Source of the DNA: Methanomicrobiaceae archaeon
GTDB taxonomy: Archaea > Halobacteriota > Methanomicrobia > Methanomicrobiales > Methanoculleaceae
Assembly: GCA_022837745.1 (NCBI GenBank)
Contig: JALHIW010000005.1
Span: forward strand, 16,458 to 80,457
Reading direction: 5' to 3'
DNA: 64,000 bases
Position numbers and translations under genes: made by a program
The notes under the pieces: generated by a model
Database searches by the model: none
What the model was told of the DNA's origin: nothing
What the model saw: only the letters and a program-made list of their open reading frames with translations
Shown here: positions 3,100 to 51,034 of the stretch, piece by piece
How the letters are laid out: the number at the start of each line of letters is the position of its first letter
How positions within the stretch are numbered: the first letter of the stretch is position 1

Positions 3100-3420
3100 G
3101 AATTATATATTCCAAGGGTCAAACTTATGAGATTGGTTACTTTTAAGCACTATTTGTGGTTATTATCTGAACTATTGTTATTAATATATATTTTAATATT
3201 ATTTAATGCGTATCCAACATACATAACATATTGGTGCGCCGCATAACAGCCGGATCGACCGAAACTCTTTTAAATATTTCAGATAGATTATTCTGGTCTC
3301 AAAAATCCTACTTTTAAAATATCATAATAAGAATAAATTCTACATAGATAATACTTTTTAAGGGTAATATCTACTTTATTTCGCAAATTTTATTAACACA
3401 TCCTCTCTACCTTTATAGTC
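3100..3420. promoter_or_regulatory. AT-rich promoter region upstream of mcrB with several TATA-like boxes
   Basis: Strongly AT-rich tract in a GC-rich genome; TTTAAATA near 3269 and TTTATTAA near 3389. Exact start site not determinable. Confidence 0.5.
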
Positions 3421-3529: not shown

Positions 3530-4834
3530 ATGGCTAAATACACGGAAACAATCGATCTCTATTCTGATGATGGTAAACTGCTCAAAAGCGGCGTTACCCT
3601 CGACAGAATCAGCCCGCTGGTTAACCCGGCCACAGGTAAGATCATCGACCTGACCAAGAGAACAATCAGCGTCAACCTTGGCGGCATCCAGGATGCGCTC
3701 AGGACAGGAAAACTCGGAAAGGGCAAGATCAAGGGAAGGGAACTCGACCTCCCGATCATGGAGAACAAGGATGCGATCGTCAGCAGGATCAAAGAGATGG
3801 TCCGGGTTGAGGAGGGCGACGACACCGAGATCCTGGAGTTCAATGGGGGTAAACTCCTGCTTGTCCAGGTCCCGACAAAACGCCTGATCAACGCATCCAC
3901 ATATGATGCCGCAATCACCTCGGTCGCAGCCGCGACAACGCTCGCGATCGTTGATCAGTTCAACATCGACGCGTTTAACGCTTCCACCGTCAAAGCGGCC
4001 TGCTGGGGCAGTTATCCTCACACCCAGGACATGGAGGGTGCGCTTGTCACATCCATCCTCACGATCCCGCAGAACAATGAGGGCATCGGCTACGCGCTCC
4101 GCAACATCCCGGTCAACCATGTCGTCATGATGACAAACAAGAACGCTCTCCAGGGTGCAGCGCTATCATCCACCCTCGAGACCGCCGGGATCTTTGAGAT
4201 GGGATCCGCCATTGGGCCGTTTGAGCGCGCCCAGTTGCTTGCCTACGCATACCAAGGCCTGAACGCGAACAACCTGGTCTACGACCTAGTAAAGGCAAAT
4301 GGTGAGAATGGGACGATCGGAACCGTCGTCCAGAGCCTGGTCGAACGCGCCATCGAGGATAAGGTCATCACCCCCGGCAAAAAGGGCGGCTACTTCCAGT
4401 TCTACGACACGAAGGACCCGATGCTCTGGAACGCCTACACCGCTGCAGGAACCATGGCAGCCACCATCGTCAACTGCGGTGCCGGACGGTTCGCACAGGC
4501 GGTCTCGTCGACGCTCCTCTACTTCAACGACCTGCTCGAGCATGAGACCGGTCTCCCGAGCACCGACTACGGCCGTGTGATGGGTACTGCCGTGGGGTTC
4601 TCGTTCTTCAGCCACTCCATCTACGGCGGCGGCGGTCCCGGTATATTCAACGGCAACCATGTCGTGACCAGACACGCGAACGGCGTGGCCATCCCGTGCG
4701 TCGTCGCCGCGATGGCGCTCGATGCCGGAACCCAGATGTTTTCGCCAGAGAGCACCTCGAAACTCTTCGCCGAGACCTACGGTAAGGTCGACGTCTTCAA
4801 CAAGCCGATCCAGCAGATCGCAAACGGAGCCTGA
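3530..4834 (+). CDS. mcrB: Methyl-coenzyme M reductase beta subunit
   Basis: MAKYTETIDLY start; FSFFSHSIYGGGGPGIFNGNHVVTRH signature; 434 aa, normal length. Confidence 0.98.
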   Translation: MAKYTETIDLYSDDGKLLKSGVTLDRISPLVNPATGKIIDLTKRTISVNLGGIQDALRTGKLGKGKIKGRELDLPIMENKDAIVSRIKEMVRVEEGDDTEILEFNGGKLLLVQVPTKRLINASTYDAAITSVAAATTLAIVDQFNIDAFNASTVKAACWGSYPHTQDMEGALVTSILTIPQNNEGIGYALRNIPVNHVVMMTNKNALQGAALSSTLETAGIFEMGSAIGPFERAQLLAYAYQGLNANNLVYDLVKANGENGTIGTVVQSLVERAIEDKVITPGKKGGYFQFYDTKDPMLWNAYTAAGTMAATIVNCGAGRFAQAVSSTLLYFNDLLEHETGLPSTDYGRVMGTAVGFSFFSHSIYGGGGPGIFNGNHVVTRHANGVAIPCVVAAMALDAGTQMFSPESTSKLFAETYGKVDVFNKPIQQIANGA

Positions 4835-6106: not shown

Positions 6107-7752
6107 ATGGCAAAGATTGAGAGAACCCAGAAGTTGTTCCTGAAATCCCTCAAGGAGAAGTTCCAGGGGCAGGAGATCGAGTCTGAGACCGCCGAATTTT
6201 ACAAGTTCAACGGCGTCCGCCAGTCTCCCCGCAAGATGGAGTTTATGAAGGCGAGCCGTGCCATCGAGATGGACCGCGGCATCCCCATGTACGACCCGGA
6301 GCGCTGCCACCTCGGCGGAATACCCATGGGTCAGCGCCAGCTGATGACCTACGAGGTCTCCGGCACCGGCGTCTTCGTGGAGGGCGACGACCTGCACTTC
6401 GTCAACAACGCTGCGATGCAGCAGTTCTGGGACGATATCCGCAGGACGGTCCGGAGACCATCAACGAGTACCTCCACATCCTGAACCACGCAATGCCCGG
6501 TGCGGCAGTTGTCCAGGAGCACATGGTCGAGACCCACCCCGGCCTTGTCGATGACTGTTACGTCAAGGTTTTTACAGGCGACCAGGAGCTCGTAGACGAC
6601 CTGGAGCCCGAGTTTGTCATCGATATCGAGAAACTCTTCCCCACAAAGCAGGCAGAGGAACTCAGGGCAGAAGTCGGCAAAGCCCTCTACCAGGCGATCC
6701 ACATCCCGACAACGGTTGTCCGGACGTGTGACGGCGGAACCACATCCCGCTGGTCTGCGATGCAGATCGGTATGTCCTACATCGCCGCATACCGTATGTG
6801 TGCCGGTGAAGCGGCCGTCGCCGACCTCTCATTCGCGGCAAAGCACGCGGGCGTCGTCCATATGGCAAGCCTGCTGCCAGCCCGGCGTGCTCGCGGTCCG
6901 AACGAGCCCGGCGGCATCAAGTTCGGTCTCTTCAGCGACATCATCCAGGCGAACCGGAAGTACCCCAACGACCCCGCGAAGGCCTCGCTCGAGGTTGTCG
7001 GCGCCGGAACCATGCTCTTTGACCAGATCTGGCTTGGATCATACATGTCCGGCGGTGTCGGGTTCACGCAGTACGCGACCGCGGCCTACACCGACAACAT
7101 CCTGGATGAGTTCACATACTACGGTATGGACTACATCAAGGACAAGTACAAGGTCGACTGGAAGAACCCGAGCCCGAACGACAGAGTCAAGCCGACCCAG
7201 GAGGTCGTCAACGACATTGCAACCGAGGTCTCCCTCAACGCCATGGAGCAGTACGAGCAGTACCCGACCATGATGGAGGACCACTTCGGCGGGTCACAGC
7301 GCGCCGGTGTCATCGCCGCTGCATCGGGTCTCTCGACCTCGATTGCAACCGGGAACTCCAACGCCGGCCTGAACGCCTGGTACCTCTCCATGCTCCTCCA
7401 CAAGGACGGCTGGTCACGTCTCGGGTTCTTCGGCTACGACCTCCAGGACCAGTGCGGTTCCGCGAACTCACTCTCCGTTGAGCCCGACCGCGGTCTGATG
7501 GGCGAACTGCGTGGTCCGAACTACCCGAACTACGCGATGAACGTCGGCCACCAGGGCGAGTACGCTGCAATCGTCGGCGGTGCCCACTACGGCCGCGGTG
7601 ATGCGTTCTGCTACAGCCCCCTCGTCAAGATCTGTTTCGCCGACCCGTCGCTGAAGTTCGACTTCGCCGAACCACGCCGCGAGTTCGCAAAGGGTGCAAT
7701 CCGCGAGTTCATGCCTGCCGGCGAGCGTTCGCTCATCATACCGGCCCGATAA
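6107..7752 (+). pseudogene. mcrA: MCR alpha subunit, frameshifted near 6451
   Basis: First frame gives MAKIERTQK...DDIRRTV and then stops; a second frame resumes [23 protein letters not shown] through to ...[10 protein letters not shown]. May be an assembly artefact. Confidence 0.85.
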
Positions 7753-44727: not shown

Positions 44728-45468
44728 TTAGTTGCACTGGAGTAAACACCGGTAGATCTCACTGTCAACAGGTGGATCGGTGATCACAGATCCCTCTCCC
44801 CAGATGCGGTCATCGCCGCAAGCGGCGTTCTCACCAATGATACCGATCCAAACGTTGCTCTGGTGGGTCTCATCCAACGCATGATACCACGCGTGACGCA
44901 CCTTATAATTGTTAAAGAGCTTGTTTGCGACGGCCGCCCCATCCTGGGCGTAGTCGTAGCCAACCGTGTCGAACCCGCAAACCAGATGGGCACCATTCAA
45001 AGCCCAATGTGGCCACGCTTTGAATTCTCCGGGGACTTGAGCGGTATGGCACGAATGCAGCAAGATCCATTCCAGATCCTGATCGCCCCAATTACAGTCA
45101 TGAAAGTATACCCAGGCGAGAACAAGCGGGAGACCATCCAGAAGGATGCAACTGTCGTCACCGTGTCCTGCCCAGAAGGCGAGGTCTACGCTATCGACAT
45201 GGGCTGCATCTGAATCCCAGTCCCCTATATAGATGTTACACCCCCACCCGGCATTATCGAACACTTCATAGAAGCCTTCGGCAATGGCGGGTGAGTTTGG
45301 CAGGTTGTTCCCGGTGTTATAGTTCTGTTTGTACTCCACCCCGAATTCCGGGGAGATCGCGTCGGAATCGTCGCCCGTCCCGGCACTGACCGGGGCCATG
45401 CATGCCATCCCCATGAAAGCCGTCACCAGGAGCACAGAGAGCACCCGCGCTCCGATGTTTCTGTTCAT
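44728..45468 (-). CDS. Secreted DUF6345-like protein
   Basis: Signal peptide; VDLAFWAGHG, WGDQDLEW...SC and CGF motifs. Confidence 0.7.
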   Translation of the reverse strand: MNRNIGARVLSVLLVTAFMGMACMAPVSAGTGDDSDAISPEFGVEYKQNYNTGNNLPNSPAIAEGFYEVFDNAGWGCNIYIGDWDSDAAHVDSVDLAFWAGHGDDSCILLDGLPLVLAWVYFHDCNWGDQDLEWILLHSCHTAQVPGEFKAWPHWALNGAHLVCGFDTVGYDYAQDGAAVANKLFNNYKVRHAWYHALDETHQSNVWIGIIGENAACGDDRIWGEGSVITDPPVDSEIYRCLLQCN

Positions 45469-45477
45469 TGTCGTTTT

Positions 45478-45640
45478 CCTCCAACCTTTTCCCGGAGGCA
45501 GGAGAGGCGCACGTTTAAGTACGCAGAACGCTTACGTTCCCTTTGCCTCCGGGCTTGCGGGGCTCTATCATCCGGGCGTCAACCGTGGATGGGGGGACCC
45601 CACGAACTTTTGCAGACGCATCATCGAGGCGCCCCCACAA
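45478..45640 (-). ncRNA. Conserved structured 5' leader, copy A (candidate cis-regulatory RNA)
   Basis: Lies between TATA 45660-45667 and SD; stems covary with copy B. Confidence 0.65.
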
Positions 45641-45905
45641 GGACATGGACGTAAGTTTATTTATAAATTCTGTCCCATTCCTTTACATGTTCTGGGGCTG
45701 TTACCAAAACTGCCGAAAACAAATCCTCCTCCTGAGGTAAAAACACAGGAGATCATTCTTCTTGCGACGGTGTGTGCAACCGTTTCCGGCTGGCAACCCT
45801 CAAGGGACGCGATGAGAAACAGGATACGGGAAAAGTTCCGATACTCAATATGACCAGCGGGAAAAAGAGAGTGTACTTACTCCGCCACAGGAACGAGCTG
45901 GATAC

Positions 45906-46319
45906 CTACCTCCCAAGCGCCCGCACAAACCGCTCCCGGATCTCGGCCGGGGCGAGAGGGATGTTTCCGACCGGTGCGTTCCCGGGATTCAGAACAACGT
46001 GGATGAAGTTCGGTCCCCGGCCCCGGCTCTCCCATGCCTCCTCGAGTTCCTCCTCGTCCTGCACCTTGCACGTATTCCGGATCCCGGCGGCACGGGCGAG
46101 GAGCTCCATGTCCACCAGACCGGAGGCCGGGGTAGGCTGGTTTCCCGTGCTCCCGAAGGCCCCGTTGTCCAGGCAGACGATCGTGAGGTTCTTCGGGGCC
46201 TCGGCGGCCACCACCGGGAGGACGGCGGTCCCGAGCAGGCTCCCATCGCCGTCGAGGACGACGATGATCCCTGCCGTTTTGAGCCGGTTCCTTGATTTTG
46301 GATTCTTGTCTTCTTCCAT
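45906..46319 (-). pseudogene. Chimeric fragment: unrelated N-terminus fused to the C-terminal part of a TPP-binding sulfopyruvate decarboxylase (ComE-like)
   Basis: DGDGSLL...LDNGAFGSTGNQPT TPP motif is preceded by only about 20 non-homologous residues. Confidence 0.7.
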
Positions 46320-46344
46320 TTCGGTTACACCTCCCAACCCGGTC

Positions 46345-46794
46345 TTAGTGGAGCAGAACGCGAGTAGAGTAATATGCACCCTCGTACTCAAGGTATGGCC
46401 GGTCCCCCTCCCTTGCATCGATACCGAACGACTCGAGGAGTACAAGATGTTCTGTACCCGTTACCGGAGCTCTCCCAATCTTGCGTTCGTCGGGATCGTC
46501 ATTGGGGCTGCCCTCCAGTTTCCATGGATGGGGATCTCTGTTATCTCCCCGGATCACCTAATTGAGCGCCGGAAACTGTTCTAAATCCTGTTCGGTCAGG
46601 TGAATGATGGAGGCGTTTTCCAGATGCTCTCCCCAGACTTCCCGCACATCCAGATCCTGCGGAAGGCCATCGACTCCCGTGATCAGGGCAACGAGGGTGG
46701 TACATGTGAGCGCGACCGTCGCGACAAGGAGGGCAGCGCCGATGAACGCAAGGACTCCCATTATAATCAGACGTCTGTTGAATTTCGATTCCAT
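46345..46794 (-). pseudogene. Membrane-anchored hypothetical protein split by an in-frame TAG at 46558-46560
   Basis: ORFs 46558..46794 and 46345..46557 are in one frame, separated only by the amber codon. Confidence 0.7.
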
Positions 46795-46965
46795 ATAACC
46801 GCCCTCATCTCCTTCATCGGATTCTGCCGGGAGGGGATCGTCCTATTTCCATACCAGTGGTTCCCATTAATTTTTCTATCACACGTTTTGCTTCAGATTT
46901 CCGTATCCAAACCTACAGAGCCAGGATAATATCTTTTCAACGGGAAGGGCGGCGCGTTCACGCCC

Positions 46966-47454
46966 TCACAAGCCCGCTGGAGCAGAGATATTCAACTTTC
47001 TTTCGAGTATAGTCGATGTGAGCGAAAACTGCCCTTCTCCAGATTCGGGTGAGGAAAGCGATACGCTCATCAATCCCGAACCCATCTGCCCGGATTCTAG
47101 AGAGGTGCTATATGGTCTCCCAGCAGGATCCCAGACCGTCAGGGTGAAGACCGCTATTTTCTCGTCGTTGGGCTCATCGTTCCGGATGTCCCTCCACGTA
47201 GCTGTGAAGGTGCTCCCTCCGATCCCGGCCTCAACGAAAGGAACCGGGTTAGAAAACGACATGTTTCTCTCGGGGTCGGCAGAAGCATCGCCGAGATAAT
47301 AGGTACCATGGGAGATATTGTCCAGAAAGACAATTCTGCCGCCCAAAGTGGTAGTATTCACCACAGCATCCTCCCTGGCATACGACATCACATACGCCAG
47401 AGCACCGGCAAGACCTACCATCAAGACGATGACACACACTATTTTCCTGTTCAT
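46966..47454 (-). CDS. Secreted/membrane-anchored hypothetical protein
   Basis: N-terminal hydrophobic helix; FTAT...LTVWD motif shared with the upstream gene. Confidence 0.7.
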   Translation of the reverse strand: MNRKIVCVIVLMVGLAGALAYVMSYAREDAVVNTTTLGGRIVFLDNISHGTYYLGDASADPERNMSFSNPVPFVEAGIGGSTFTATWRDIRNDEPNDEKIAVFTLTVWDPAGRPYSTSLESGQMGSGLMSVSLSSPESGEGQFSLTSTILERKLNISAPAGL

Positions 47455-47508
47455 AATGACCACCACTGCGGTTCAAAAATAGTGCATCCATGAAGATGCA
47501 CCCCCTTT

Positions 47509-48012
47509 TCAGGCAAAGTCAAGGTCGCCGATGTAGGGACCCCCAACTGCCATCGTAGTATCGAACCAGTCGTGGGTCTCACACCACAGTTCATACTGAG
47601 CGTCGCCGCTGCCCTGTGAATTGAAGGTCACGCTGATTGTACCACTGGTCGCCCAGTCAACCCTTTTTTCGGTAGTGTGCGCCACGCCCAGGGCGTCCCA
47701 TACCGTCAGACGGTAGATTGCCCCCTGGCCGTCATTGTCCCGGTCGTTATCATTGCTGTACGTCGCCGTGAAGGTGTTCTGCCCTGCCGGAGCAGTGACG
47801 CACCCCACACCGGCCACGCTTGCCGTATTGCCGTCGCCATCGGTAGACATGCTCCCCAGATGTATGGTGGCCAGAATCCCGATGTCGCCCGTATTCTCCT
47901 CTACAGACATTTCAGAATCGGCTTGAGCCGCAGAAACTGCCCCGGCGGATACCGATACAAAGAGTATCAGTACTGCCAGCATTGACAGAAGCCCGTTTCC
48001 TTTCTTCATCAT
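47509..48012 (-). CDS. Secreted hypothetical protein
   Basis: MKK signal peptide, GGAGGT SD and FTAT...LTVWD motif. Confidence 0.8.
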   Translation of the reverse strand: MMKKGNGLLSMLAVLILFVSVSAGAVSAAQADSEMSVEENTGDIGILATIHLGSMSTDGDGNTASVAGVGCVTAPAGQNTFTATYSNDNDRDNDGQGAIYRLTVWDALGVAHTTEKRVDWATSGTISVTFNSQGSGDAQYELWCETHDWFDTTMAVGGPYIGDLDFA

Positions 48013-48017
48013 CAGGT

Positions 48018-48178
48018 ACCTCCGTTTTCGGTTCCCGGAGGCACACGCACACGTTTAAGTCTGCAGAGTGTGTACACTCTCATTGCCTCCAGGCACGCGG
48101 GACGTTCACCCGCCGTTTGGCATATCAGCCGGGTGGACCTCCGCACTGGTGCAGGCGCCGCCTGCGGCACCTACAAGT
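48018..48178 (-). ncRNA. Conserved structured 5' leader, copy B
   Basis: 48050-48093 aligns without gaps to 45510-45553, with compensatory changes. Confidence 0.65.
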
Positions 48179-48210
48179 GTTCACTTGTCAGTTTTGAGAT
48201 AAACCGTTTA

Positions 48211-48228
48211 TGGGACAAACACCAATTC
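48211..48228 (-). promoter_or_regulatory. 18-bp operator, copy 1 (GAATTGGTGTTTGTCCCA on minus strand)
   Basis: 7 nt upstream of the TTTATC box at 48198-48203. Confidence 0.7.
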
Positions 48229-48529
48229 GACACGCGACTTTTCTGGAAAATAGCAGGGATAACGCCCCGGGATCGCCATAGACAACTCCACCTGCATGAG
48301 ACCCTCACAGGAGAATTCCCTCCCGATGGAAAATGCAGGGCTGGTATGAGCAGCATTGTTCCGGGAGATTCGGTACTGGGGTTCCCTCCCCGTGCGTTGC
48401 GCGCAGGCCGTCCCGCTACGCCCGCACCGCACCAATCTCTTCAGATATAGTGGCTCCAGGCACGGTACGGCCGTGTTGCTCCTCAAACACGTTCACCTCC
48501 AGGAAAGGAAGAGGGCAGAGACGAGAATA

Positions 48530-48582: not shown

Positions 48583-49035
48583 ATGGCATCAGCAAAGAGG
48601 AAATGTATGGCTTTTGCCCTGCTGCTCGTCGTATCCTTCCTTGCCGTGCCCCCGGTGGCGGCAACGGAAGGTGACGGCTACACGGTTCGGCCCTCGGGAT
48701 CAGACGACCTGGTGACGACCCTGCGGCTCTCCGACAGTATCGGGCAGGGTGAGACCAACAGGCACCAGTTCTATGTCGGAAGCGGCGTCGCATATCTCGA
48801 AGTATACCTGAACTGGGGATCGACCTCCGATTCCCTGGCGTTGACTATATACGCTCCTTCAGGGAGCAAGATCGGCACGTTCCACGACAACGCCGACGGA
48901 GTTGTAGATGGTAAAATTCATATAGACATTGACCCGGATAGTAGTTATGTAAGCCAGGGGACGTGGGCGTTCGATGTATACGGTGAGAAAGTTTCATCAG
49001 AGAGATCATACACCTTCAACGTCTACCCGTACTAG
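48583..49035 (+). CDS. Secreted stand-alone PPC (pre-peptidase C-terminal)-like domain protein
   Basis: Signal peptide; LNWGSTSDSLALTIYAPSG...GTWAFDVYG beta-sandwich motif. Confidence 0.8.
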   Translation: MASAKRKCMAFALLLVVSFLAVPPVAATEGDGYTVRPSGSDDLVTTLRLSDSIGQGETNRHQFYVGSGVAYLEVYLNWGSTSDSLALTIYAPSGSKIGTFHDNADGVVDGKIHIDIDPDSSYVSQGTWAFDVYGEKVSSERSYTFNVYPY

Positions 49036-49819
49036 GCCAGGCAGACTTCTCCGGCTGTTCACCCTCTCGGTCCTCTTTTTAGTGCTGCTGGTAACGGTTG
49101 CCGATGCCACCGAATACACGGTCCGGCCTTCGAGAAACGTCGGAAAAGAGCCCGGCATGTCCGTATCTGGCGAGAAGGTGCAGGAGATCGACCCGATCCC
49201 GCTCTGGCTCTTCCTGTTGCTGTCTGTTTTCCCCCAGTTGGCAGCGGCCCCGATCGAGACCCTTCTTCCCCTGAAGACCGTCGGATATCTCGGGTACAAG
49301 CGGATCTGCAAAGAAAACGCTCTTGAGAGTCCGCAGAGACGCAAGATCTTGAGATTTGTCAAGAGGAACCCTGGATTGCACTTCAGGGAGATATTGAGGC
49401 GTGTACCTCTGACGCGGGGGACGCTTGATCACCATATGAAAACAATGGAATCCGTGGGCCTCTTAAAGACGGTATCGGGAAGAGGGAGGGTTCATTATTT
49501 CGTCGCAGATTCATCATATTCGGCCGAGGAAGAGATCCTTATCACCGTACTGAGGAATGAGAGTCTGCGGAGAATTATAACAGAGATCTATCTCAATCAA
49601 GGTGCATGCAACGAAGAAATTGCAGAAGACGTCGGACTATCCGGAGCTACAGTTTATGAACATCTACGATACCTGAAAGATCTGGGTGTTGTGATCGCTG
49701 AGAGGGACGGGCGGTGTGTGCGGTATACCCTCGCCGAGAGTTATTCTCGTATACTGGCGGGTATGCGGATCATTATACCGAACCGGCCCGGAATGCGGCT
49801 GATCCCGCCGGATAGATAG
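48974..49819 (+). CDS. Membrane-anchored tandem winged-helix transcriptional regulator
   Basis: Two hydrophobic segments, then NPGLHFREILR...RGTLDHH and LSGATVYEHLRYL; start uncertain. Confidence 0.8.
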   Translation: MYTVRKFHQRDHTPSTSTRTRPGRLLRLFTLSVLFLVLLVTVADATEYTVRPSRNVGKEPGMSVSGEKVQEIDPIPLWLFLLLSVFPQLAAAPIETLLPLKTVGYLGYKRICKENALESPQRRKILRFVKRNPGLHFREILRRVPLTRGTLDHHMKTMESVGLLKTVSGRGRVHYFVADSSYSAEEEILITVLRNESLRRIITEIYLNQGACNEEIAEDVGLSGATVYEHLRYLKDLGVVIAERDGRCVRYTLAESYSRILAGMRIIIPNRPGMRLIPPDR

Positions 49820-50041: not shown

Positions 50042-50074
50042 GAAACGGTATAAAGAAGGACAGCGAAGTCTCCA

Positions 50075-50215
50075 TCGGGGAAGCCGCACGCGGTATCCCG
50101 AGGGGGCCGGGTGTCTCGATTGGCGTCGGATCCCGGACTCCCACCGCGTGCCCGGAGGGCAATAGGGCTGTTGGCTGTCATCGGGGATAGCCGTTGTGGT
50201 TCTGCGGTCTCCCAG
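50075..50215 (+). ncRNA. Diverged copy C of the structured leader
   Basis: CCGCGTGCCCGGAGGGCAAT at 50144-50163 nearly matches copy B CCGCGTGCCTGGAGGCAAT; similar upstream stems. Confidence 0.45.
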
Positions 50216-50241
50216 AGCACGCATGAATGAGGTGAAAACCA

Positions 50242-51034
50242 ATGAAGATGAAATTGATTGGAAAGATATTTCCCGCTCTTACGTTAGCACTCATGTGCGG
50301 TGCTCTCGTTTCGCTTGTCGGGGCATGGGAGATAGACCCTATTAATGAACCGATTGCTGCGAATATCTCGGTCGATGATGGTATGCATCCTTTGTGGACG
50401 GGATACCCATACCCAGGTATTGGGGATGCTGACGTTCATAACGACTTGGCAAAGGTTGCAGGGCTAAAGATGGGACTTCCAGTTGAGTACTACAGTTGGC
50501 TGAGTAAACTGGCAGGACAACCAGATGATCCTAACTTCGATGACTATACGCTCCATCCGAGTGAAACGCACTATGGCTCACACTCTTCCTTTCATGAAGA
50601 ACGCCCCGGAGGTTGCAGAGTACTATGCGAATAAAGCAAGGGACTACATCAGAAATGGTGACCCTAACAACGGGTATATTCAGTTGGCGTATGCCATGCA
50701 TTTCATGTCGGATATGGGCTGCCCGTATCATTACACCTACGAAGGTCTAGCCAATCATCCAAAATATGAAGGATTTGTCGGGGACAATTGGCATACCGGG
50801 CATTATTTTTACAGAGATATCTTAGATGCCGATTATTATTACTCGATATCTGATGTAAGCGATGCTGCAAACAATCTCGCAAACGCTGCACATCAGTACC
50901 AGAGTTATTTTGATAGTCAGATCTGGCACAACTCAGACTGGAAAATCGATCCGAAACTCATTGAAGATACAAGGACTGTCCTTATATATACCGAAAGGTA
51001 CGATCGAGGCCTTGTCGATTATGTAAACAGATAG
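50242..51034 (+). pseudogene. Secreted Zn-dependent phospholipase C / S1-P1 nuclease family protein, frameshifted near 50580
   Basis: Signal peptide and W...H...D...HY in the first frame; AMHFMSDMGCPYH...HPKYE in the second frame. Confidence 0.75.

Follow-up and report, generated by a model that had tools for sequence, protein, structure and literature searches.

The leader of a secreted-protein gene in a Methanomicrobiaceae archaeon (assembly GCA_022837745.1, contig JALHIW010000005.1, positions 16,458 to 80,457; these 64,000 nt are called the window) shows a Shine-Dalgarno (SD) sequence preceded by two strands with which it could form a translational toggle. The leader is about 170 nt long, and the stretch that was flagged in it (45478-45553, minus strand) is its 3′ end. 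Three strands are predicted to compete: GGAGG, in the 5′ strand of a stem named P1; CCUCC(G), in the 3′ strand of P1; and the gene's own (Y)GGAGG SD, which in the family is found 10-16 nt past CCUCC(G). With P1 closed, CCUCC would be occupied, the SD would lie in an A-rich single-stranded spacer and translation would be ON; this is the predicted ground state. With P1 opened, CCUCC(GG) would pair with (YY)GGAGG in a hairpin of 6-8 bp that would hide the SD, and translation would be OFF. A three-strand SD-masking toggle, ON by default, is our best reading of the leader, and we hold it tentatively. It is built on the arrangement of the strands, its conservation, the covariation pattern and the predicted energetics, and it would imply that leaders adopt the OFF state in the cell, that masking blocks initiation and that something flips the toggle.

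The original prediction, made from the sequence, had placed GGAGG, CCUCC and the SD in two copies of the leader, both on the minus strand, and direct reading of the sequence agrees with all these positions, as well as with the claimed CCUCC-to-SD distance of 11-13 nt, which is 11 nt in copy 1 and 13 nt in copy 2. The outer stem that it had proposed was recovered by the minimum free energy (MFE) folds of both copies, which show a 10-bp P1 around two hairpins, P2 and P3, with z = −3.4 to −4.2. Copies 1 and 2 align at 76% identity over ~240 nt, and their P2 pairs, GGAACG/CGUUCU in copy 1 and AGAGUG/CACUCU in copy 2, differ by compensatory changes.

According to an alignment of 89 sequences and to the folds, the order of elements in the family is a TATA-like box, Stem A, domain B, 2 nt, P1 enclosing P2 and P3, spacer, SD and AUG. 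The TATA-like box is conserved in the alignment and lies ~25 nt 5′ of Stem A. In domain B, a G-rich GCGG(G/A)GG pairs with a conserved (C/U)CCCGC and encloses stem B, which across the alignment is of the CAUCC/GGAUG or of the CACCC/GGGUG type. The spacer between P1 and the SD is variable and A-rich, with 7-13 nt, and the gap between SD and AUG ranges between 6 and 10 nt. The alternately complementary strands of the leader are S1 GCGGRGG, S2 YCCCGC, S3 CCCGGAGG, S4 CCUCCGG and S5 YGGAGG, and pairing 3:4 excludes pairing 4:5. The elements of copy 1, followed by those of copy 2, are:

45658..45667, minus strand: TATA-like box TTTATAAATA, from direct reading; the transcript start that archaeal promoter spacing would predict is at ~45636-45638.
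45611..45637, minus strand: Stem A, the hairpin with which the leader is predicted to begin, from the fold.
45557..45603, minus strand: domain B, in which G-rich GUGGGG pairs with the conserved CCCCGC around stem B (CAUCC/GGAUG), from the folds.
45553 to 45544, minus strand: P1 5′ strand CCCGGAGGCA, the "anti-anti-SD", with GGAGG at 45550 to 45546.
45525..45540, minus strand: P2 hairpin GGAACG-UAAG-CGUUCU, from the fold.
45507..45524, minus strand: P3 hairpin GCGUAC-UUAAAC-GUGCGC, from the fold.
45501..45506, minus strand: J3/1 pyrimidine tract CUCUCC, a possible OFF-state partner of the P1 5′ strand.
45500 to 45491, minus strand: P1 3′ strand UGCCUCCGGG, the anti-SD, with CCUCC at 45498 to 45494.
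45483..45490, minus strand: spacer AAAAGGUU, whose two final U can form G.U pairs with the GG after CCUCC.
45482 to 45478, minus strand: SD GGAGG, 9 nt before the AUG at 45468.
44728..45468, minus strand: gene for a 246-aa DUF6345 protein (PF19872, E = 1.7e-29) with an N-terminal signal peptide.
48196..48203, minus strand: TATA-like box TTTATCTC of copy 2, from direct reading and the alignment.
48150..48175, minus strand: Stem A GUAGGUGCCGC...GCGGCGCCUGC, from the fold.
48097..48146, minus strand: domain B, with GCGGAGG, stem B (CACCC/GGGUG) and UCCCGC, from the folds.
48093 to 48084, minus strand: P1 5′ strand CCUGGAGGCA, from direct reading and the fold.
48065..48080, minus strand: P2 hairpin AGAGUG-UACA-CACUCU, compensatory in relation to copy 1.
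48047..48064, minus strand: P3 hairpin GCAGAC-UUAAAC-GUGUGC, from the fold.
48043 to 48034, minus strand: P1 3′ strand UGCCUCCGGG, the anti-SD, with CCUCC at 48041 to 48037 and an 8-bp hairpin with CGGAGGUA.
48023 to 48019, minus strand: SD GGAGG, 6 nt before the AUG at 48012.
47509..48012, minus strand: gene for a 167-aa signal-peptide protein whose family was not recognised by the profile scan.

Three other roles for parts of the leader were considered and dropped. MFE folds of short constructs had suggested CCCGC as the true anti-SD; in the full leader, CCCGC pairs with the upstream GCGGGG and closes domain B. A conserved upstream open reading frame (ORF) after the GGAGG of P1 was discarded as the AUG in GGAGGCAAUGG is not conserved, and pairing of the SD with a conserved UUCUCC of the signal-peptide codons was negligible.

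To collect the family, conserved positions were first read from leaders located 5′ of DUF6345 homologues. The resulting pattern (CCCGC..GCCYGGAGGCAA, a gap, and ACTTRAA) was searched in GTDB contigs with one genome per species and found 92 stretches with ~98 distinct instances. All 92 loci (loci, including those of other scans, carry L numbers here) belong to Methanoculleus, Methanogenium or related metagenome-assembled genomes (MAGs) of Methanomicrobiales, with the exception of a few contigs under bacterial MAG names. Genomes hold several copies, up to eight among the pattern matches listed for one MAG, and these are often found in tandem gene arrays. A covariance model built from 89 instances and searched against the same loci added ~30 divergent copies, and 134 distinct copies were aligned to the model. 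Furthermore, a metagenome scan with a 19-nt pattern anchored outside P1 found ~33 further leader matches, and the leader is also present in metatranscriptome contigs; these contigs break at the repeated leader, so they hold no start-site information. Matches of the metagenome pattern in dozens of "human gut metagenome" contigs (L105-L220; …CCCGCCACCTTGATAATNTTTCCATTC…) are chance matches to an unrelated coding repeat and were filtered out. ACTTAAACGTG was dropped as a family signature because it is not conserved in L007 and L011, and the other GGAGGCAA sites of the window (8622 and 38188), examined as extra class I copies, are ordinary sequence. Rfam 15 showed no match above the gathering threshold anywhere in the window, and at E ≤ 10 in 45300-48500 only a chance snoRNA match elsewhere. 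Full-text literature searches found neither a description of the motif nor a natural cis-acting translational switch for Methanomicrobiales. The leader family and its modular architecture are apparently new, while the mechanism proposed for it is classical.

The genome pattern fixed the 5′ strand of P1; the 3′ strand of P1 and the SD were absent from it. GCCUCCGG followed by GGAGG was found in ~80 of 91 homologous leaders from other genomes. CCTCC stands 4-30 nt before a GGAGG SD in 53 of 60 leader genes (~88%) versus 15 of 109 other SD-bearing genes of the same loci, and six or seven of those 15 control genes are leader variants missed by the filter. In the metagenome leaders, where the 5′ strand of P1 was not fixed, CCCGGAGGC is still present in ~29 of 33. 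Conservation of the anti-SD/SD geometry in homologues, one of the checks on which the original prediction was to stand or fall, was found in more than 130 distinct leaders and in at least four classes with unrelated stem interiors. Since the leader copies are paralogous, the events behind these counts are not independent of one another.

RNAalifold on the core alignment returned just a small CCCCG/CGG.GG hairpin (S2:S3), which is rare in the OFF ensembles (3/70), and missed the junction; covariation was therefore scored on our own structure. Naive mutual information over the whole leader was also tried and was confounded by the few sequence types. Among the 134 model-aligned sequences, double-sided changes are found in six of the six pairs of P2 and in four of the six of P3, and in none of the nine core pairs of P1, which shows only G.U pairs or mismatches. 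Stem A has double-sided changes in six of nine pairs, with 87% of cells paired, and the closing helix of domain B is 76% paired across the family. A lack of any RNA-level function, with the similarity going back to a DNA-level protein-binding site or to promoter-proximal DNA that was recently duplicated among paralogues or homogenised by gene conversion, would fit the many copies per genome, their frequent tandem arrays, the narrow taxonomic range and the conservation of the promoter and the signal-peptide codons as well. That Stem A, P2 and P3 change in a compensatory way speaks against it, as do the paired strands that are kept while spacer and flanks diverge freely, the P1 arms that lie ~47 bp apart with variable spacing, and the presence of the leader in metatranscriptome contigs, and we consider it very improbable.

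For the toggle, the invariance of P1 would follow from a chain of constraints, in which the 3′ end of the 16S rRNA would fix the SD, the SD the anti-SD, and the anti-SD the 5′ strand of P1; from this we infer why P1 alone lacks covariation. L116 has an altered 5′ strand, CCAGGAAGCA, with UGCCUUCCUCCGGG downstream, and judged by eye it seems to offer CUUCC for the changed 5′ strand while CCUCC stays for the SD.

The interior of P1 is not constant. Besides class I, to which the P2/P3 interior belongs, three other classes (II-IV) retain the triad of GGAGG, CCUCC and SD with a replaced interior. Copy 3 of the window, on the plus strand, is of class II, and its elements are:

~50048-50056, plus strand: TATA-like GGTATAAAGA, from sequence reading.
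50060-50241, plus strand: leader region, with a Stem A-like hairpin, a domain B-like region and then the closing stem.
50146..50222, plus strand: long hairpin closed by GCGUGCCCGGAGGGC / GGUCUCCCAGAGCACGC; the type of outer stem is shared and the interior is unrelated.
50229..50235, plus strand: SD GAGGUGA, 6 nt before the AUG at 50242.
50242..50634, plus strand: ORF for a 130-aa signal-peptide protein.

The outer strands of copy 3, CCCGGAGGGC ... CCUCCCCGGG, flank the unrelated long hairpin, whose fold has −40.7 kcal/mol. Copy 3 is a weak match to the covariance model (18.8 bits, E = 0.16) and has homologues at L057:5320, L051:4150, L046:4163 and L039:696. Classes III and IV (metagenome loci L166:~3260-3385, L115 with two sites, and L177) show yet other interiors inside P1 and have domain B, CCCGC and the CCCGGAGGCA strand in common with class I. 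On comparison of these sequences, the leader seems to be built in modules, with an insert that can be exchanged inside a frame that stays constant. In one leader, an insertion of ~190 nt splits the P3 region (L007:1262-1455; also L053:3999-4133, of Methanoculleus palmolei); the L007 insertion contains GAGGUGUUUCGGGAUCACCUCCUUAA, a stretch identical to the canonical 3′ end of 16S rRNA (GAUCACCUCCU), paired with its own SD-like GAGGUG. Partial tandem duplicates of CCCGC and CCCGGAGGCAAUGGGG are found just 5′ of the full leader in L044:~4475-4589 (minus strand) and L102:~7186-7300 (plus strand), which suggests recombination within the leader family.

The original prediction had likened the two states to the expression platform of a translational riboswitch. 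In that case the P1-P2-P3 junction would be an aptamer, and a metabolite bound to it would stabilise P1 and free the SD, as in an ON switch of the add type. The leader does show a three-way junction, covarying P2 and P3, fairly conserved junction and loop nucleotides, and a P1 that is mutually exclusive with the masking helix. However, the whole junction is swapped in classes II-IV while P1 and the SD are retained, the P3 loop looks invariant because the search pattern required it, and this invariance erodes in the covariance-model matches. Rfam gives no match around the element even at E ≤ 10. Moreover, the 10-bp P1 is already stable ligand-free, and the secreted proteins downstream are mixed, with no shared pathway. 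The weak point of the likeness to a riboswitch is the aptamer, and we take a metabolite switch to be improbable. Since the junction is interchangeable, export is the only trait shared by the genes, P1 is stable without ligand and no family matches, the sensor is probably not a small-molecule aptamer.

Folding was carried out from the predicted 5′ end, and for the energy gap each state was forced; all energies are those of the nearest-neighbour model. The difference G(OFF) − G(ON) has a median of +2.6 kcal/mol and ranges between −5.1 and +11.9 (n = 72). The mean pair probability of P1 is 0.70 at 37 °C and 0.74 at 55 °C, that of the SD with the 3′ strand of P1 is 0.18 and 0.13, respectively, and the masked (OFF) state is predicted to be dominant in 13 of 70 leaders. 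The isolated masking hairpins have 7 bp and −9.4 kcal/mol in copy 1, and 8 bp and −12.9 kcal/mol in copy 2. Of the two-state platform that had been proposed, the mutual exclusivity of the CCUCC pairings, with GGAGG of P1 or with the SD, was borne out by the sequence, the constrained folds and the masking hairpins, and the masking hairpin is stable once released; the predicted balance of the states leans towards the SD-free one. As that state is favoured, the leader alone is predicted to be ON and something must open P1. The folds also suggest that the leader is not locked, as the SD would be buried if P1 opened. In the OFF ensembles, the J3/1 pyrimidine tract is the commonest partner of GGAGG from the 5′ strand of P1 (dominant in 23/70).

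Sequence comparisons give modest evidence that the masking helix itself may be under selection. The position −1 of the SD is a pyrimidine in 61 of 66 distinct leaders versus 65 of 114 control SDs. A pyrimidine there is not favoured by pairing of the SD with rRNA, because the rRNA would pair with A; it lengthens CCUCC:GGAGG by at least 1 bp in 58 of the 66 leaders and by at least 2 bp in 36. Shuffling of the spacer alone raised the OFF-minus-ON gap from 3.44 to 5.14 kcal/mol, and the native gap was lower in 51 of 70 leaders. Duplexes between cognate anti-SD and SD regions average −10.75 kcal/mol versus −10.37 kcal/mol for permuted pairs, and none of 300 permutations was as low. Three cases fit compensation: L077, in which CCUCCAAG pairs with CUUGGAGG (8 bp, −14.5 kcal/mol) and the base of P1 is weakened; class III, with UGCCUCUGU and GACAGAGGUA (−14.5 kcal/mol); and L123, with CUUCC and an SD region containing GGAAG.

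The predicted energetics would also fit a constitutive expression cassette, in which a stabilising and translation-permissive 5′ untranslated region (UTR) is joined to a strong promoter and a shared signal peptide, P1 never opens, the SD stays accessible and the complementarity of CCUCC to the SD goes unused. A hairpin at the 5′ terminus, compact domains and an open, A-rich SD region would be the parts of this UTR. In the folds, closed P1 is the ground state (probability ~0.70, with ON favoured by a median of 2.6 kcal/mol); Stem A starts where the leader is predicted to begin, and the interior of P1 can be replaced. Nucleotide conservation extends from the TATA-like box and covers ~45 nt of coding sequence, beginning MNGKIGMRAFSMLLA..., after which the mature proteins are mutually unrelated. 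Structured 5′ UTRs that stabilise the mRNAs of surface-layer proteins are known in bacteria and count for this explanation too. However, a purely structural P1 should covary like Stem A, P2 and P3, and it does not. A cassette of this kind gives no reason for an SD-complementary strand beside the SD, and it leaves the pyrimidine bias before the SD and the extended masking helices (L077, class III and L123) unexplained. We regard it as unlikely, while giving it serious weight.

Several results weigh against the SD-masking toggle. Folding of both conformers, one of the checks suggested along with the original prediction, favoured ON in the flagged copy 1 by 8.9 kcal/mol, with a gap of +1.5 kcal/mol in copy 2; co-transcriptional order also favours P1, and the leader may simply stay ON. 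The invariance of the strands could largely stem from the collection method, in which the 5′ strand was fixed, and from recent paralogy. True compensatory changes between CCUCC and the SD are few and mixed, and in the subsets of leaders with a variant anti-SD or a variant SD the cognate partners do not outperform random ones. A mismatching C occupies position −1 of the SD in six CCUCCU leaders, three leaders (L016, L018 and L076) have a 1-nt spacer, with no room for the canonical hairpin, and the SD GAGGUGA of copy 3 is poorly complementary to its own UCUCC strand, with a duplex of only −2.0 kcal/mol. Finally, a "slipped P1" on the CCUCUCC tract of J3/1 was rejected as a selected OFF partner: shuffled or randomised J3/1 gives the same gap, so selection for this role is not supported.

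If the toggle operates, the interchangeable interior of P1 makes its trigger more likely to be a trans-acting factor, such as a protein or a small RNA, or a condition or physiological state that opens or clamps P1, than a ligand of the P2/P3 junction. This borders on another explanation, in which P1, or P1 with domain B, is the recognition site of a protein or small RNA whose function is not SD masking but, for instance, processing or decay of the mRNA or its delivery to the membrane or the secretion machinery, and the resemblance to SD and anti-SD is incidental. Such a site would account for the sequence invariance of P1 and for the fact that Stem A, domain B, CCCGC and the P1 strands are the constant parts while the interior varies; the downstream genes encode almost exclusively signal-peptide proteins, and leader genes in the window and in L011 have a pair of genes beside them, one for a PPC-domain protein and the other for a double winged-helix protein. 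On the other hand, it comes without a candidate factor, it gives no reason to expect the SD flank to be complementary to the 3′ strand of P1, and it overlaps with the toggle if the factor opens or clamps P1. We consider a recognition site of this kind rather doubtful.

The logic of the leader is like that of known bacterial switches, and the leader is not a member of the add or thiM families. In the Vibrio vulnificus add adenine riboswitch, P1 closes a three-way junction and competes with an SD-masking helix, so that the SD is free when P1 is closed. The P1 of the leader likewise closes a three-way junction and competes with a masking helix, as in this purine riboswitch (RF00167); however, RF00167 has no match at E ≤ 10 around the element, and the loops of P2 and P3 have 4 and 6 nt, in contrast to purine riboswitches, whose model has kissing 7-nt loops and conserved junction bases. 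It also differs from add in its P1 of 10 bp, stable ligand-free, in a junction that is dispensable (classes II-IV), and in being archaeal, in several copies per genome, and located before genes of secreted proteins rather than of purine metabolism. The chain of SD, anti-SD and anti-anti-SD strands is shared with the platform of the Escherichia coli thiM thiamine pyrophosphate (TPP) riboswitch and with classical attenuators, but the leader shows neither a TPP aptamer nor a leader peptide and is predicted to be ON by default. As in the RNA thermometers ROSE and fourU, the SD can be sequestered in a hairpin by a short complementary pyrimidine strand. Thermometers have a masked ground state that melts on heating, whereas the masked state of the leader is predicted to be minor at both 37 °C and 55 °C; because it is not the ground state, the leader is not thermometer-like. 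With the mRNA-stabilising 5′ UTRs of surface-layer and other strongly expressed secreted proteins of bacteria, the leader shares its length and stability, a terminal hairpin and the exported-protein genes. It differs from them in its invariant SD/anti-SD stem and in forming a many-copy family before unrelated genes, features for which, to our knowledge, those UTRs are not known. In Archaea, the leader resembles the autoregulatory k-turn 5′ leader of L7Ae, a structure proposed to control translation through a trans-acting protein (PMC6298567). The genes studied here are not ribosomal or RNA-binding, in contrast to that case, their leaders occur in several copies per genome, and no k-turn was noticed, no search aimed at k-turns having been made.

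Nearly all proteins encoded downstream of the leader start with a signal-peptide-like N-terminus. A Pfam scan of 44 of them found six reprolysin-like peptidases, two DUF6345 proteins and one transglutaminase, the rest having no Pfam match, and one coherent pathway or transport theme was not found among these 44. The signal-peptide coding stretch MNGKIGMRAFSMLLAVMLVS... (45420-45468 on the minus strand of the window, and most downstream ORFs in L012-L103) is conserved as nucleotides; since these codons precede unrelated mature domains, promoter, leader and signal peptide behave as one cassette. Codons 5-10 show, by eye, a possible hairpin, GGAAUGCGGGCAUUCU, without obvious compensation.

The window comes from a Methanoculleus: relatives of the DUF6345 gene of copy 1 carry this genus name, and an identical gene is found on a contig of GCA_022840325.1. 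An ORF with the C-terminal domain of TPP enzymes lies 5′ of copy 1 (45906-46445, minus strand); it has 137, 232, 249 and 252 aa among near-identical contigs (L001-L006), lengths that suggest frameshifts or strain-level decay. Downstream of the copy 2 gene, at a distance of 42 nt, there is a paralogue of 166 aa without its own leader (46966-47466, minus strand). The two genes are probably co-transcribed, and the copy 2 leader may thus control a two-gene operon. Between copies 2 and 3 (48583-49819, plus strand) are located a secreted PPC-domain protein and then a double winged-helix protein (HTH_24, HTH_5, HVO_0163-type), and the same pair is found directly 5′ of the leader and DUF6345 gene of L011 (L011:1-988); the pair could be a local regulator. 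A small gene family (M(K/R)FxENDRTGR...) shows a simple CCUCC ... GGAGG arrangement at the SD, without the long leader (L012:~7290-7330, L048:~6560-6600 and L082:~6140-6180), and on this sequence pattern Methanoculleus may make wider use of SD masking.

Hardly any natural translational switches that act in cis have been documented for Archaea. The leader could define a lineage-specific archaeal "secretome regulon" at the RNA level, in which several unrelated secreted-protein genes of each Methanoculleus or Methanogenium genome carry one modular leader, its invariant GGAGG/CCUCC stem serves as a common toggle of the SD, and a single trans-acting signal flips the toggle; that signal would come from a protein, from a small RNA, or from the status of the ribosome or of secretion. 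We regard such a regulon as possible, while leaning against it. If true, it would mirror a transcriptional regulon at the post-transcriptional level and join the very few natural translational switches known from Archaea. The family also offers natural "mutants", with four interior classes, spacer variants and anti-SD variants, and because it is large and structurally well defined, it makes the control of SD-dependent initiation in methanogens directly testable. The leader would mark a co-regulated set of secreted proteins, metallopeptidases among them, and many biogas reactors are dominated by the organisms that carry it. If it is constitutive instead, promoter, leader and signal peptide would still make up a compact cassette with which proteins could be expressed and secreted in methanogens.

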